A stretch of DNA of 17,967 nt from Candidatus Nanohaloarchaea archaeon (GTDB lineage: Archaea > Nanohalarchaeota > Nanosalinia > Nanosalinales > Nanosalinaceae), in the NCBI GenBank assembly GCA_041640075.1, contig JBEQAY010000022.1, positions 1-17,967 on the forward strand, read 5' to 3'. The notes under the pieces were generated by a model that saw nothing but the letters and a program-made list of their open reading frames with translations, was not told where the DNA came from and ran no database searches. This document shows, one piece after another, positions 28 to 16,427 of this stretch. A program made the position numbers and the translations under genes. Positions within the stretch are counted from its first letter, which is position 1. Every line of letters begins with the position of its first letter.

Positions 28-33
28 TTTTAA
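28..33 (+). promoter_or_regulatory. Putative TATA box of the SRP RNA gene
   Basis: TTTTAA about 25 nt upstream of the predicted RNA 5' end (57), the usual archaeal spacing. Confidence 0.5.
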
Positions 34-56
34 CTGTTCCAGCAGATTTTGTTTTT

Positions 57-324
57 GGGTAGGCTGGGCGGTTCGGGGCCGCTTGTAACCTTGAAATCCT
101 CGTTATGCAGGGGGCTGAAAACCGTTGGGAGGTGTCTCTTTCAATGGTTCGGCCCATGGGACGGTTGTTTGACGATCCGTCCTCCGGGATGTCGCAGGCT
201 GTGAACCGGGTCAGGCCCTGACGGGTGCAGCCCTAAGCAGTCAGTGGCATGTTCGGAGGGTGGCGGATCCGAGGCCGTGCCGTGGATTTACCGGCCGTTG
301 AAGGGCATCGACCTTCGGGAACCC
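57..324 (+). ncRNA. ffs: Signal recognition particle RNA (7S-type, about 268 nt, lacking helix 6)
   Basis: Terminal helix GGGT(57-60)/ACCC(321-324). Alu domain: helix 3 GGGCGG(66-71)/CCGCTT(79-84), UGUNR motif TGTAA(84-88), helix 4 CCTTG(89-93)/CAGGG(108-112), loop-loop complementarity CGGGG(74-78)/CCTCG(98-102). Long paired rod 131-201/238-309. Helix 8 GGG-TCAGG-CCC-TGAC-GGG-TGCAG-CCC (208-233) matches the SRP54-binding motif. Followed by a T-tract. Confidence 0.95.
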
Positions 325-328
325 GCTG

Positions 329-339
329 TTTTTGATTTT
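329..339 (+). terminator. T-rich archaeal terminator after the SRP RNA
   Basis: TTTTTGATTTT just after the closing helix. Confidence 0.5.
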
Positions 340-11474: not shown

Positions 11475-11483
11475 GTGAATACT

Positions 11484-11885
11484 ATGGATCAAGAAATGAT
11501 GCAGGAATACCAGCAGCTCCAGCAACAGATGGAGGAGATGGAGGAACAGCTAACACAGATAAAAGAAAGAGTGCAGGAAATACAGGGTGCAGTAAAGGGC
11601 ATCCAAGATCTTGAGGACGCTGAGGAAGGCTCTGAAGTACTGGCACCAATCGGTGGCGGAGCTTTCGCAGTAGCAGAACTGAAAAGCAGCGAAAAAGTAG
11701 TCACAAACGTTGGAGGGGACTCCTACGAGAAACGAGATCTGGACTCCGCAGAGCAACTTCTACAGGATCAGCAAGATCAGCTTGAGGAAACTGAGGAACG
11801 ACTTGAGGAAGATATGGAAGAGATGCAGCAGCAGCTTCAGCAGATCCAGATGCAGCTTCAGCAGCAACAGCAAGGCGAACAGTGA
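11484..11885 (+). CDS. pfdA: Prefoldin alpha subunit
   Basis: Two coiled coils flanking EVLAPIGGGAF..A.L....KVVTNVG...Y.E. AGGTGA SD at 11473-11478. Synteny with rplX and ftsY. Confidence 0.93.
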   Translation: MDQEMMQEYQQLQQQMEEMEEQLTQIKERVQEIQGAVKGIQDLEDAEEGSEVLAPIGGGAFAVAELKSSEKVVTNVGGDSYEKRDLDSAEQLLQDQQDQLEETEERLEEDMEEMQQQLQQIQMQLQQQQQGEQ

Positions 11886-12769
11886 TGCTTGGAGACCTCA
11901 AGGACTCCGTCAAAGAATTTTCTTCGAACGTGAAGTCCGCAGTAGCGGAGAAAGAGCTTGAGGAATCCGACATAGATCCACTTCTGGAAGAGTTCAGACT
12001 CAAACTTCTGAAAAACAATGTCTCTCTGGAAGTTGCAGAAGAGATAGAAGATGAGCTGAGGGAAAAACTTGTAGGTAAAGAGGTTGGACGCACCGACGTG
12101 GATGAAACAGTTGAAGAAGCGTTCAAGGAGAAATTAATTGAACTTCTGGACGACAGCTTTGATCTTGAAGCAGAACTTAAGGAGGCAGAGAAACCTCCTG
12201 TTGTTTTCCTTATCGGTTTCAATGGCTCTGGAAAGACAACGACTGCTGCAAAACTTGCAAACCAGTACAAGGATCAGGGAGTTGTACTGGGCGCAGGAGA
12301 CACGTTCAGAGCAGCCTCCATCGAACAGCTCCAGGAGCACGGCGAAAACCTGGATGTGAAGGTCGTTACACATGAATACGAGTCAGATCCAGCAGCAGTC
12401 GGATACGACACCGTTGAGCACGCCAAGAAAAACGATAAGATCGCGATAGTGGACACAGCAGGAAGATCTCACTCCGACGATAACCTAATGGACGAACTCC
12501 AGAAGATGGTTGAAGTAAATAATCCAGACGTCAGCTTCCTGGTAGTGGATGCTCTTGCTGGAAACGACGTTCTTGAGCAGGCAGATGCCTACGAGGGGAT
12601 GTTTGACGCGATAGTTGTGACCAAGATGGATGTGGACGAGAAAGGTGGTGCAATAATCTCATTGAGCCACAGAAGTGGAAAACCTGTCGCTTTCATCGGT
12701 ACAGGACAGGATTACGGTGACATAAAGGAGTTTGACAAGGAAGAATTCGTCAAAGGAATTCTGGAATAA
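11885..12769 (+). CDS. ftsY: SRP receptor FtsY (NG domains only)
   Basis: GFNGSGKTTTAAKLA, GDTFRAAS.EQL, DPAAV, DTAGR, TKMD..KGG, GTGQ. TGATG coupling with pfdA. Confidence 0.96.
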   Translation: MLGDLKDSVKEFSSNVKSAVAEKELEESDIDPLLEEFRLKLLKNNVSLEVAEEIEDELREKLVGKEVGRTDVDETVEEAFKEKLIELLDDSFDLEAELKEAEKPPVVFLIGFNGSGKTTTAAKLANQYKDQGVVLGAGDTFRAASIEQLQEHGENLDVKVVTHEYESDPAAVGYDTVEHAKKNDKIAIVDTAGRSHSDDNLMDELQKMVEVNNPDVSFLVVDALAGNDVLEQADAYEGMFDAIVVTKMDVDEKGGAIISLSHRSGKPVAFIGTGQDYGDIKEFDKEEFVKGILE

Positions 12770-12826
12770 CGGCATCTTCTTCAACTGCCTCTAGGAAATT
12801 TCTTTAAGTCAGGAAAGTACTATAAA

Positions 12827-13156
12827 CTAGAGATATGCTTTCTGATCTTCCATTCTCTCTTTCATGGATTTCTCAAGTTCTTCAAGCTTGGATTTCAGCG
12901 GCTCCATGTCATCGTCGAAGTCGCTCATCTTGACCTGCTTACCCTCGCTACGTTCCTGGATTCTCTCTTTTCGCATCACTGTCAGTAGGTGGTTGACTTC
13001 AGCTACAAGCTGTTCGTACTGCTTCAGTTCAGCCTCTATGTAGGAGATTTCCTCACCAAGTTCCTCTCGGAGCTCTTCCGTTACCTCCTGTTTCATCTGC
13101 TGTTTGTCAACGCCGAACTTCCTGCGTACAGTCCTGTAAAATTTCTCCATTCCCAT
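12827..13156 (-). CDS. Hypothetical coiled-coil protein
   Basis: 109-aa E/K-rich helical ORF filling the gap. No family recognised. Confidence 0.7.
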   Translation of the reverse strand: MGMEKFYRTVRRKFGVDKQQMKQEVTEELREELGEEISYIEAELKQYEQLVAEVNHLLTVMRKERIQERSEGKQVKMSDFDDDMEPLKSKLEELEKSMKERMEDQKAYL

Positions 13157-13207
13157 AACCAGTCAACCTGTATCTACCAATGAATCATAAAATCTTATAA
13201 GAGTTTT

Positions 13208-13798
13208 TCAGGATGCTTCTTCCGGATCTGGAATCTTCTCAGTCTCACCTTCACGAGGATCCTTCTCAATATCTTCTTCCTTCTTCTCACGGATAGGCTC
13301 CGGAATGGAAGCCGAGAGGTCACGTACCTGATTCTCCTGGAAGAAACGGGCTGTCACAGCACCAAGCGCTGCATCGAACTCCGCAGCTGAATCGATATCA
13401 GAGGGATCGACACCGTAGCCTTCAAACGCATCATCGGAGTCGATCGCCAGCTCCCTACCGGAGATGACAGGGTCAAACCTGATATACTCTGGTAGCTCGT
13501 CACCTGATAGCTCCTGAGCAAGATGCGCTTTAAACGACTGAAAACGCCTTACACGCTTCACATCATCTTTTGCGGGCGTGAAGATAAATCCTTCCTCCTG
13601 GAGCTCTTCTTCACCATCACTGAGCCTTCTTCTCTCCTCAAGACCTGTATTAACTGCTATTATACCGGGTTTCCTCTCCTTTACAAGTTCAACTATCTCC
13701 TTGTTCGAGTCAACTGTGAATGATTCAATTTCATCTGAAAGAAAAGCTACAGAGCTTTCATCCTTCTCTGTCTCCCCGAATACAATTCCACATAACAT
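13208..13798 (-). CDS. DUF429-like (predicted RNase H-fold) protein, degenerate active site
   Basis: Pattern MLCGIVFG..K..S.VAFL..EIVEL....KP.IIAVNTGL..FDAALGAVTA..F resembles DUF429/COG2410. Confidence 0.55.
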   Translation of the reverse strand: MLCGIVFGETEKDESSVAFLSDEIESFTVDSNKEIVELVKERKPGIIAVNTGLEERRRLSDGEEELQEEGFIFTPAKDDVKRVRRFQSFKAHLAQELSGDELPEYIRFDPVISGRELAIDSDDAFEGYGVDPSDIDSAAEFDAALGAVTARFFQENQVRDLSASIPEPIREKKEEDIEKDPREGETEKIPDPEEAS

Positions 13799-13803
13799 AG
13801 TAT

Positions 13804-14685
13804 CTATACCTTTACCTTCTTCGCTTCCTTACGAAATTTTTCCTTTGACTCATCCTCTCCGGGTTCTTCCCTGTCCTCGCTGTCACCTTCTTCTTTCTCG
13901 AACTCCATCAAAGACCTGTTCTTCTGCTTTATCTCCATAAACTTCTCGGTCTCTGCACGATCCTTTACGATACCGATGAAGTCGATCAAAGCCTTGTTGA
14001 AGTCCTGAGGCTTTTCAAAAAAGCTGAAACTACCTGCAGCATCAAGCTTGCTCAGCGATGCATTCGGCTCAAGCTCCCTCGCAAAATCAAGATCCGAAAA
14101 CCTGTCGTCGCCGGCGTGGATCACAAGAGACTGCTTGGACGGCCGTGAAACCTTGTAGCCTTCCAGGAAACTTTTGAAATCCGAGTAATCCGGTTTCTCC
14201 AGTGTCTGCATGAAATCCTTAACCACGCTGTACTTCGTGTCGTCTGAGAAAAATATTTTCTTCGCAATCTTCGGCTTGAAACTGCCGATCCTGTAAAACC
14301 AGTCCAAGACTTTCCTCGGCGGCATCTTCTCAAACTTTCTGCGTGGACCAGTCAGGACTGTCGAGATGACGTCATCCCGATCCTCAAACTCCTGTACAAG
14401 ACTGTTTCCAAAAGTGTTGGATACAAGTATCACGTTATCCAGGTGATCCTGGTTCAAAACGTTTTCAAGTGCAGATCTCTCCCCTGAAAGATCTCTGAAA
14501 CTTACTGTGGGCTTGAAACTGATCGTACGGAATCTCTTGGAGAAGTAACGGATCTGTTGCTTCCACAGCTCCGGGTTCAGGCCGCCAGGTACAAATACAA
14601 GCTGTACCGACGACTCCTTCTCTGACTCATAATAATGAAGGTTCTCTTCGCCCACTCTTCTCAAAGAAAACTGCACTGCATCCAC
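13804..14685 (-). CDS. Alpha/beta hydrolase-fold protein, probably non-catalytic, with charged C-terminal tail
   Basis: LVFVPGG...W..QI.YFS..FR, LVSNTFG, LVIHAGDD, AGSFSFFEKPQDFNKAL. GAGGTGA SD favours GTG 14685. Confidence 0.8.
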   Translation of the reverse strand: MDAVQFSLRRVGEENLHYYESEKESSVQLVFVPGGLNPELWKQQIRYFSKRFRTISFKPTVSFRDLSGERSALENVLNQDHLDNVILVSNTFGNSLVQEFEDRDDVISTVLTGPRRKFEKMPPRKVLDWFYRIGSFKPKIAKKIFFSDDTKYSVVKDFMQTLEKPDYSDFKSFLEGYKVSRPSKQSLVIHAGDDRFSDLDFARELEPNASLSKLDAAGSFSFFEKPQDFNKALIDFIGIVKDRAETEKFMEIKQKNRSLMEFEKEEGDSEDREEPGEDESKEKFRKEAKKVKV

Positions 14686-14741
14686 TAATATCACCTCTAA
14701 AGCTTTTATCCATTGACTTCAATTGAAACCTTAAGAACACA

Positions 14742-15095
14742 ATGCCTGCACAACAGAAATTCGCACAGTACGGCCTGGAAATAATACTTGAACTATTCGC
14801 ACTCTACCTGGCTTACAGAGTAAACCAGCTTACCGGACTTAAAACAGCGTTCATAGTCTTCATCTGTGCTTCGTACCTCTTCTACAATCTTGCTTCCATC
14901 GAGAGAATCTGGAACACCTCTGCAATGCTCGTCAACCCGGCAAAATCAGCCATACTTATCACGTGTATCGGAGTAGTGTATTACGGACTTCAAGGTGTAA
15001 CTTTCCAGCAACTCCTGGTGACCGGTCTAGCATTCTTCCTGATAGGTGGAGCAGTCGGCGCACTGGTCTTCAGCTACTGGGAGATCGGAAGCTAA
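14742..15095 (+). CDS. Small hypothetical membrane protein (about 4 TM)
   Basis: Four hydrophobic segments in 117 aa, directly upstream of srp54. Confidence 0.7.
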   Translation: MPAQQKFAQYGLEIILELFALYLAYRVNQLTGLKTAFIVFICASYLFYNLASIERIWNTSAMLVNPAKSAILITCIGVVYYGLQGVTFQQLLVTGLAFFLIGGAVGALVFSYWEIGS

Positions 15096-15134
15096 AATCA
15101 AACCATTTTAACATTACAGTCCGAAACCGGAAAC

Positions 15135-16427
15135 ATGTTTGACAAAATAAAGGATTCAATAGAAAAATTCTCCTCAAGGAACGTCGCCGACAAGGAAGCC
15201 GTCAAGGAACTTGTCAAAGACATCCAGAGAGACCTGATAAGAGCAGACGTCGACGTCGCGCTCGTATCAGACCTCACAGATGAGATAAAGGAAGAAGCAC
15301 TGAAAGAAGACCTTCCATCAGGACTTTCACGCAAAGAACACGTCCTGAAAATAGTATACGACAAACTGGAAGAACTACTGGGAGAAGAAGCAGAGATAGA
15401 AATAGAGCCAAAAAACGTTCTTCTCTGCGGGCTCTACGGAGCAGGAAAAACAACTACAGCCGGAAAACTGGCTGACTTCTACCGTAAAAGAGGCATGAAA
15501 GTCGGATTAATCGCAGCCGACACAGACAGGCCGGCAGCATACGAACAGCTCCAGCAGATCGCGGAAGAAGTCGACGCAGAGTTCTACGGCGACCCTGACG
15601 CAGAAGATCCGGTGGAGGTAGTAGAAGAAGGGATGGAGAAAATTGAGGCGGACGTAAAAATTGTTGACTCGGCAGGAAGAGACTCTCTCAACGACAGACT
15701 GAAGAAACAGCTCTCCGACATGTCCGAAGCATTCCGGCCGGAGGAAAAATACCTTGTCATCCCTGCAGACATCGGTCAGTCAGCCCGTGAACAGGCAGAA
15801 ATGTTCCATGAATCAGTAGGAATTACAGGAGTAATTGTAACAAAGATGGACTCTTCAGCTAAAGGAGGAGGAGCACTTGTAGCTTGTGCCGACTCCGACG
15901 CAAAGGTCAAGTTCATCGGTACAGGAGAAAAGATGGGAGACCTGGAAGAGTACGATCCTGTAGACTTTGTCTCCGACATGATAGGCCAGCCAGACCTTGA
16001 AAGCCTGCTGGAAAAGATCGAGGAGATGGATACCGATCCGGAAGCAATTCTTGAAGGAGACTTCACGATGAAGGACTTCAAGGAGCAGATAGAATCCGTG
16101 ACGCAGGCCGGAGTAATGGAGGAGATGATGCAGCAGCTTCCTTTCTCCTCGAACAAACTTCCGGACAACATGCAGGATATGACGGAGGGAAAGATAGAGA
16201 ACTACACGGTTATGATGGATTCTATGACTGATGAAGAGATGAAAGACCCTACGATAATCAAGGAATCCCGTAGAGAAAGGATTGCAAAGGGATCAGGTAC
16301 AGAGAAAGGAGAGGTCGCCGAACTGGTCAAGCACTACAAACAGACCAAGAACATGGTGAACAAGTTCGACAAGAAATCCATGAAACGCGGAAACATGAAA
16401 GACATGATGAGCAAGATGGGTCTCTAA
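15135..16427 (+). CDS. srp54: Signal recognition particle protein SRP54/Ffh
   Basis: ADVDV, GLYGAGKTTTAGKLA, DTDRPAAYEQL, DSAGR, TKMDSSAKGGGAL, GTGEK. M domain with DSMTDEE..P..I..SRRERIAKGSG and a Met-rich tail. Confidence 0.97.
   Translation: MFDKIKDSIEKFSSRNVADKEAVKELVKDIQRDLIRADVDVALVSDLTDEIKEEALKEDLPSGLSRKEHVLKIVYDKLEELLGEEAEIEIEPKNVLLCGLYGAGKTTTAGKLADFYRKRGMKVGLIAADTDRPAAYEQLQQIAEEVDAEFYGDPDAEDPVEVVEEGMEKIEADVKIVDSAGRDSLNDRLKKQLSDMSEAFRPEEKYLVIPADIGQSAREQAEMFHESVGITGVIVTKMDSSAKGGGALVACADSDAKVKFIGTGEKMGDLEEYDPVDFVSDMIGQPDLESLLEKIEEMDTDPEAILEGDFTMKDFKEQIESVTQAGVMEEMMQQLPFSSNKLPDNMQDMTEGKIENYTVMMDSMTDEEMKDPTIIKESRRERIAKGSGTEKGEVAELVKHYKQTKNMVNKFDKKSMKRGNMKDMMSKMGL

Follow-up and report, generated by a model that had tools for sequence, protein, structure and literature searches.

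We found that the SRP RNA gene of a small halophilic DPANN archaeon, located in a stretch of 17,967 nucleotides (the window), encodes an RNA without helix 6. That this is a genuine SRP RNA gene and that helix 6 is absent from it are both confirmed. In textbook archaea, the helix 6 arm of SRP RNA holds SRP19. We consider it quite probable that the window encodes an archaeal SRP RNA which is functional and has lost helix 6 by a clean deletion, that SRP19 was lost too, likely in one loss at or near the base of DPANN, and that the particle consists of the RNA and SRP54.

SRP RNA gene and its unbranched helix

The features of the gene and of its protein partners are listed in Table 1. The Rfam family Archaea_SRP (RF01857) matched positions 52-329 over the full model length with 110.3 bits, compared with a gathering cut-off of 96.5, and was the sole Rfam family above its cut-off in the window. 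The Bacteria_large_SRP model (RF01854) matched exactly the extent of the gene with 97.6 bits (threshold 60); it matched none of four archaeal control genomes. The Rfam scan gave a single SRP RNA match in the whole genome, which is 89% complete. The predicted fold of 57-330 has an energy of -130.5 kcal/mol (z -3.5), and one of 200 shuffles was as good.

Table 1. Coordinates of the SRP RNA gene, its parts and the SRP protein genes in the window; the last row gives the positions of related genes in their own loci.
Feature	Position	Strand	Details and basis
TATA-box-like TTTTAAC, putative	28..34	+	32 nt 5' of the U in UAGGC
SRP RNA gene lacking helix 6, about 268 nt	57..324	+	helix 1 closes the ends (57-60/321-324); RF01857, RF01854
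Alu (small) domain, helices 2-4	60..119	+	UGUAA motif 84-88; loop-loop pseudoknot 74-78/98-102; Rfam alignment
Helix 5, 5' strand, unbranched into helix 8	123..201	+	GUCC of the 5e region 179-182; fold and GUCC-to-AAC spacer of 21 nt
Would-be helix 6 branch point, zero inserted bases	194..195	+	Rfam alignment, covariation
Helix 8, SRP54 site	201..238	+	asymmetric loop 203-207/234-236; symmetric loop 212-215/226-229
Helix-8 tip loop UGAC (URRC type), not GNRA	219..222	+	loop counts across phylum RNAs
Helix 8a/helix 5, 3' strand	238..317	+	3-nt 5e bulge at about 259-261; fold
U-rich tract, likely terminator	329..339	+	sequence; similar tracts 3' of homologues
FtsY, SRP receptor, NG domain only	11882..12769	+	Pfam SRP54, SRP54_N; best PDB match is an archaeal-type SRP receptor chain
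SRP54/Ffh, N, G and M domains	15135..16427	+	Pfam SRP54_N, SRP54, SRP_SPB
Aenigmatarchaeota SRP RNA genes with tip-loop insert	L193, L197, L199: ~101-415; L194: 101-416; L389: 1501-1847	minus (L194)	genomes G123, G100, G083, G091, G239

The genome measures 0.98 Mb and its open frames are acidic (D+E 18%, K+R 10%). Three named Nanohaloarchaea loci scored 215-243 bits on a profile built from the window homologues, with the window in the same range, and the public sequencing runs that matched the window best were hypersaline. On these grounds we read the genome as that of a nanohaloarchaeon. In the cultured relative Ca. Nanohalococcus the SRP RNA is reported to be highly expressed; SRP RNA, Ffh and FtsY are identified there, and the accessible portions of the paper carry no remark on helix 6 or SRP19 (PMC10266531). 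Of 30 homologous loci, 26 had a TATA-like word at -26 to -38. A sigma-70 promoter scan gave no match, the sigma-70 model being inapplicable to archaea. Directly 3' of the RNA gene is a very acidic 260-aa open frame (380-1162) with no Pfam match, whose middle part looked winged-helix-like by eye.

The Alu pseudoknot was paired in 95.9% of 148 cells over 30 aligned rows; three of its pairs held in 30/30 rows and one showed changes on both sides. When the register was shifted by one, pairing dropped to 79.7%. The UGUNR motif is altered in some genera of the phylum. Helix 8 carries both SRP54-binding loops, symmetric and asymmetric. At one position of the symmetric loop the window has U226, where 29/30 aligned rows have A; a contig of run X1 also has U.

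In the RF01857 alignment, 38 helix-6 model positions correspond to 0 bases between G194 and C195. The fold contains no GNAR-capped hairpin in 171-260, and four GNAR-like words in that region fall in stems or internal loops. Across 30 aligned homologues, the 22 pairs that span the branch site were 95.3% paired and 16 of them had changed on both sides. For the whole 41-pair structure, 24 pairs had changed on both sides, and slid registers were only 40-56% paired. The observed values were reached by 0/500 shuffles, a count that is not a probability; the 30 rows are mutually related.

The distance between GUCC in helix 5 and AAC in helix 8 gives the same picture. Among 38 phylum RNAs, 37 have a spacer of 21 nt (one was unparsed). 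It measures 55-67 nt in 16/17 helix-6-bearing archaeal RNAs, and of the 104 bacterial rows among the matches listed, 68 show 19-20 nt. The helix-6-bearing controls were 17 RNAs with a GNAR hairpin found among at least 120 metagenome loci and confirmed with Rfam, 15 of which matched the full model at 304-327 nt. A home-made helix-6 profile gave a best E of 0.67 against the genome; this profile is weak and regains just 9/17 of its own training RNAs.

The first-pass annotation of this DNA had proposed an archaeal SRP RNA without helix 6, built like the large RNA of Bacillus, and our results bear this out. All eight helices that it listed pair fully, the block deletion that it predicted over the helix-6 columns is present in the Rfam alignment, and the continuous helix covaries as expected. 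The Bacillus-like architecture agrees with the RF01854 match and with a spacer close to the bacterial length. It had also placed an A196/A243 mismatch at the branch site. The two bases are indeed unpaired in the window, but 22 of 30 homologues have a pair at this column, so the mismatch is no conserved relic. Two of the objections that it had anticipated, a second complete SRP RNA in the genome and an assembly deletion near 196, found no support. Contigs of other runs bridge 194-196 (X3 record 19, 84-333; X1 record 3, 56-225), with no insert at the junction among the 12 of 14 indel rows listed. Since homologues have the same structure and the junction is bridged by these contigs, an assembly error is excluded.

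Short SRP RNAs and SRP19 in DPANN

The RNA survey covered the phylum of this genome, Aenigmatarchaeota and Micrarchaeota/Iainarchaeota, which are one phylum in the database used. Within the own phylum, 60 of 70 genomes were matched, giving 62 matches that all measured 260-283 nt. Eleven of these 62 fell below the Rfam cut-off, so annotation can miss these genes. We read 41 of the matches (30 aligned, 8 parsed and 3 folded), and helix 6 was present in none of them; nine single-contig genomes were among the 41 and had the same structure. Micrarchaeota/Iainarchaeota were matched in 50/51 genomes at 269-282 nt, and all 50 RNAs were short. The 20 that we read, 8 of them by eye, were all short with a GGAA loop. 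In Aenigmatarchaeota, 79/81 genomes were matched; 68 of the RNAs measured 266-289 nt and the other 11 were longer, 306-358 nt.

A pattern scan for the short form found at least 120 loci; it required an archaeal-like Alu word, which makes this a biased sample. Among the matches listed, at least 104 were treated as bacterial and at least 16 as archaeal. All eight archaeal matches with a group name were DPANN, and the eight without a name either belonged to DPANN phyla or were similar to them. Two metagenome archaeal SRP RNAs (L296:200-494 and L350:235-507) apparently lack helix 6 and keep GGAA. A pair of near-identical SRP RNA genes lies close together in each of two relatives, G003 (contig C7, 407761-408040 and 423716-423996) and G016 (contig C3, 80236-80500 and 82955-83229), which may reflect duplication or assembly overlap.

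We read all 11 long Aenigmatarchaeota RNAs as candidate helix-6 carriers. Ten were rejected, as their additions lie elsewhere, either at the helix-8 tip or alongside helix 8, or else within helix 5 or the Alu domain. Extra hairpins were seen in six Aenigmatarchaeota RNAs (L195, L196, L198, L200, L201 and L398), placed 3' of helix 8, within helix 5, within the helix-8 loop or within the Alu domain. The remaining RNA, L389 of genome G239, carries a hairpin of ~40 nt exactly at the helix-6 site. Its loop is non-GNAR, SRP19 gave no match, and it is the sole DPANN RNA found with a hairpin at this site; its clade-mates have none there. The hairpin could be a relic or a new insertion, and a relic would imply several losses.

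Five Aenigmatarchaeota SRP RNA genes, L389 among them, have an insert of 31-39 nt within the helix-8 tip loop with bulge-helix-bulge-like flanks (Table 1, last row). These inserts are candidate introns. Judged from their sequence, excision by the tRNA-intron rule would restore GGAA or GGGA, as found in the insert-free relative L401. For the permuted Thermoproteus SRP RNA, whose ends lie at the same helix-8 tip, an intron-bearing ancestor is proposed in the part of PMC4731332 consulted.

SRP19 was sought with two profiles, in searches that use a loose, heuristic first pass. PF01922 had no match in this genome and none over the cut-off in 41 relatives or 61 Aenigmatarchaeota, and it missed the Sulfolobus control. 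The SRP19 model NF001973 matched 4/4 archaeal controls. With it we obtained no match at E 1 in this genome (89% complete) and no full-length match in 70 genomes of the own phylum (28 at least 90% complete), where one partial match of 15 bits had a stop inside. Micrarchaeota/Iainarchaeota gave none full-length in 101 genomes, with five partial matches of at most 19.8 bits in frames of 287-839 aa, and Aenigmatarchaeota none in 151 genomes, with one match of 16 bits in a 430-aa frame. From the score tables alone, the partial matches (13.5-19.8 bits) were judged to be noise.

Published tables agree with this. A supplementary row gives SRP19 as 0.0 in Aenigmarchaeota, Diapherotrites, Micrarchaeota, Pacearchaeota and Woesearchaeota and as 0.80-1.0 in eleven other archaeal groups; the row is identical in PMC9258230 and PMC8204110, so these are not independent. 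Supplementary Data 25 of PMC13473441 (arCOG01217) holds 173 SRP19 sequences, 0% from DPANN, Altiarchaeota and Undinarchaeota included, and also gives 0% for Hadarchaeota, which are not DPANN. The excerpted reconstruction in that study puts the probability of SRP19 presence at 1 for the root, 1 for the TACK+Asgard+DPANN node and 0.3 for the DPANN ancestor. The term 'SRP' is absent from the main texts of all three papers, and in them the 0% goes uncommented. According to the sections of PMC2905702 available, Haloferax tolerates deletion of SRP19, which archaeal SRP RNA does not need in order to bind SRP54.

As expected, no credible SRP19 match was found in this genome or in the 70, 101 and 151 genomes of three phyla. 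The first-pass annotation had inferred a lineage-specific deletion. In a narrow sense this is not supported: Aenigmatarchaeota and Micrarchaeota/Iainarchaeota share the short form and the lack of SRP19 hits, and the published SRP19 value is 0% across DPANN.

Tip loop, SRP54 and FtsY

The helix-8 tip loop was UGAC in 33, UGGC in 4 and UGAU in 1 of 38 phylum RNAs, one of them read by eye, and none was GNRA. This loop variant had escaped the first-pass annotation. The GRRA tetraloop (adenosine clamp) of the canonical archaeal RNA is absent from these 38 RNAs. URRC-type loops also occur in 5/42 Aenigmatarchaeota rows, four of which join the nanohaloarchaeal rows with an SH-aLRT of 96, a value to which the loop columns contribute. 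The distinctive trait at phylum level is the URRC-type tip loop, common to a few Aenigmatarchaeota only. URRC is described as a widespread bacterial alternative to GNRA in the available part of PMC4091067; among the matches listed here, UGAC was present in 1/104 bacterial rows (L144, a Clostridia genome). The loop context GAACC/UAAG was considered as a bacteria-only mark and rejected, as it is also present in the helix-6-bearing archaeal RNA L281.

Both protein partners are encoded in the window. The M domain of SRP54 has intact what we take to be its RNA-binding motifs. Lys208 of FtsY (12503-12505) is the equivalent of Lys399 in E. coli, with the DTAGR motif in E. coli FtsY used to set the register. 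An equivalent lysine is present in 14/14 DPANN FtsY segments read and in the solved archaeal receptors aligned, which come from archaea with helix 6. Because these receptors keep it too, the lysine does not single out a bacterial-type tether, although it would permit one. A prefoldin-alpha-like open frame, so judged by eye, overlaps the start of FtsY; SRP54 follows 2.4 kb further on (window 11475-16427). FtsY and SRP54 lie ~3 kb apart in genomes G014 and G022 as well.

The GNRA loop of the E. coli RNA tethers Lys399 of FtsY, and changes to loop or lysine cost 20-200-fold, whereas mammalian SRP no longer uses the contact between tip loop and FtsY (both from the portion of PMC6781444 consulted). 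A UGAC tether may be weak or lost, because mild loop changes in E. coli reduce activity to that degree. We put the chances that the URRC loop still recruits FtsY at close to even.

We infer a two-component particle of RNA and SRP54, probably with one protein as in Bacillus-type bacteria. The SRP54 M domain would bind both internal loops of helix 8 directly, without the helix-6 clamp and without SRP19. The Alu domain is kept along with the pseudoknot and would be RNA-only, as is described for Gram-positive bacteria; it probably still extends to the ribosomal elongation-factor site, which has been proposed for those bacteria too. FtsY would dock on SRP54, with Lys208 possibly tethered to the tip loop. 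Once helix 6 was gone the adenosine clamp would have been lifted, and the tip loop would have been free to become URRC. This change may have taken place in nanohaloarchaea and a few Aenigmatarchaeota, paralleling some bacteria.

Origin of the short form and comparison with known systems

In a tree of 96 RNA rows (273 columns), 33 bacterial rows were split from 63 archaeal rows with an SH-aLRT of 99. Nanohaloarchaeal rows stood beside Aenigmatarchaeota (87), and Micrarchaeota/Iainarchaeota RNAs stood apart from this Aenigmatarchaeota-nanohaloarchaeal set. A tree of the S domain only, from which the long bacterial rows L054, L120 and L159 were left out, kept 30 bacterial rows together (89). It is unlikely that the RNA was transferred from within the bacteria sampled. 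An arrangement in which the bacterial branch attaches to the nanohaloarchaeal rows was not rejected by an AU test (p 0.76), so that the tree does not fix the attachment point. The quick tree search was suboptimal, a constrained tree being 21 log units better, and the deep nodes carry little weight. A bacterial large SRP RNA of WOR-3 (L071:268-539) was matched best by the archaeal model, at 113.7 bits, although the rows of WOR-3 cluster with bacteria in the tree. For RNAs that have no helix 6, the Rfam label by itself can thus mislead.

The RNA tree gives no direction of change, and loss of helix 6 and SRP19 as the direction rests on a published root. A 2026 reconciliation study places the archaeal root near Euryarchaeota, with DPANN sister to TACK+Asgard (PMC13473441, as excerpted). 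We favour a single loss. A wider proposal is that helix 6 and SRP19 were lost in one event common to all DPANN, Altiarchaeota included, which would mark their monophyly, and that nanohaloarchaeal SRP went back by convergence to a fully bacterial mode, in which the Alu domain is RNA-only, SRP54 is the sole protein and FtsY is tethered by the URRC loop. We advance it tentatively, with a little under even confidence.

Independent losses of helix 6 and SRP19 in several reduced DPANN lineages would accommodate the L389 hairpin at the helix-6 site and the separate place of Micrarchaeota/Iainarchaeota RNAs in the tree. The published SRP19 values fit such losses as well, the probability at the DPANN ancestor being 0.3 and not 0, and the 0% of Hadarchaeota outside DPANN means that loss can recur (both from the excerpts of PMC13473441). 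However, Aenigmatarchaeota RNAs acquire hairpins at many sites, the clade-mates of L389 have none at the helix-6 site, and the 273-column tree is weak at deep nodes. The GUCC-AAC spacer is nearly equal, 21 and 22 nt, in the two DPANN clusters, and the SRP19 set of the same study holds no DPANN sequence, even from Altiarchaeota or Undinarchaeota. We therefore regard parallel losses as unlikely.

Another possibility is that helix 6 and SRP19 arose after the DPANN split, and that the likeness to bacteria was inherited from the universal ancestor. The near-bacterial spacer (21 compared with 19-20 nt), the RF01854 score and the AU result are compatible with this, and a DPANN root is among the hypotheses named in the abstract of PMC13473441. 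The root which that study reports near Euryarchaeota, together with an SRP19 probability of 1 for both the root and the TACK+Asgard+DPANN node, speaks against it. An ancestral short form is distinctly improbable to us.

DPANN proteins evolve fast, and this, the heuristic first pass of the searches and the failure of one model on Sulfolobus leave a small chance that a diverged SRP19 or a substitute protein still stabilises the S domain. But both contact sites, the GNAR loop of helix 6 and the GNRA loop of helix 8, are gone in the phylum, and two profiles concur with the published tables (the identical row of PMC9258230/PMC8204110, and PMC13473441, as far as these sources were available) in giving no SRP19, which makes this highly improbable.

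Acquisition of the RNA or its S domain from a bacterium with large-type SRP RNA is largely refuted, and we give it hardly any credence. It could draw on the passed Bacteria_large_SRP cut-off and on URRC loops in bacteria (PMC4091067, in part), with UGAC in 1/104 bacterial rows here (L144, among the matches listed). The Archaea_SRP score is higher, however; a well-supported branch sets the 33 bacterial rows apart, and nanohaloarchaeal rows join Aenigmatarchaeota; the S-domain tree holds its bacterial rows together; and the GAAC...UAAG loop context is present in the archaeal L281 with helix 6. An assembly deletion or a pseudogene, as the fragmented assembly, the position of the gene at a contig end and the rare U226 might suggest, is refuted by homologues, with the same structure in 41/41 phylum matches read, strong covariation, no second copy and contigs that bridge the junction, and its probability is practically nil.

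In the archaeal and DPANN SRP literature that we searched, most subscription journals being outside the search, we found no statement that DPANN SRP RNAs are without helix 6. At least three DPANN phyla offer natural minimal archaeal SRPs in which to ask why helix 6 and SRP19 were acquired. They also bear on receptor recruitment, which may use the tip loop as in bacteria or have dropped it as in mammals. Loss of helix 6 and SRP19 may serve as a rare genomic change in the debates on DPANN monophyly and nanohaloarchaeal placement, and the SRP RNA of Hadarchaeota would show whether helix 6 goes with SRP19.

The window RNA is a real, conserved variant form of archaeal SRP. With the canonical archaeal SRP (7S) RNA (RF01857; Methanocaldococcus jannaschii, Archaeoglobus fulgidus) it has in common helices 1-5 and 8, UGUNR, the Alu pseudoknot and 5e, as well as archaeal-type SRP54 and FtsY encoded in the same window, and it groups with archaeal RNAs. 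In contrast to the canonical RNA, it has no helix 6 (~40 nt shorter), no GNAR loop and no adenosine clamp between helices 6 and 8; its tip is UGAC instead of GRRA, and the SRP19 gene was not found.

Compared with bacterial large SRP RNA (RF01854; Bacillus/Clostridium type), the window RNA has the same combination of Alu domain, helix 5 and helix 8 without helix 6 or SRP19, a similar spacer (19-20 in bacteria, 21 nt here) and a tip loop known as a bacterial variant. It differs in its archaeal ancestry, as indicated by the trees, the Alu words and the higher RF01857 score, and in its archaeal SRP54 and FtsY partners.

Thermoproteus was considered as a precedent for an archaeal SRP without helix 6 and SRP19 and was rejected. 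According to the available part of PMC4731332, its SRP RNA is permuted and circular, keeps helix 6 and binds SRP19, whereas the window RNA is colinear without helix 6. Plastid SRP RNAs, as described in the part of PMC4091067 consulted, share a non-GNRA apical loop and the setting of a reduced genome; they are of bacterial type with variable loops, whereas the nanohaloarchaeal loop is fixed as URRC-type and the equivalent of FtsY Lys399 is kept.
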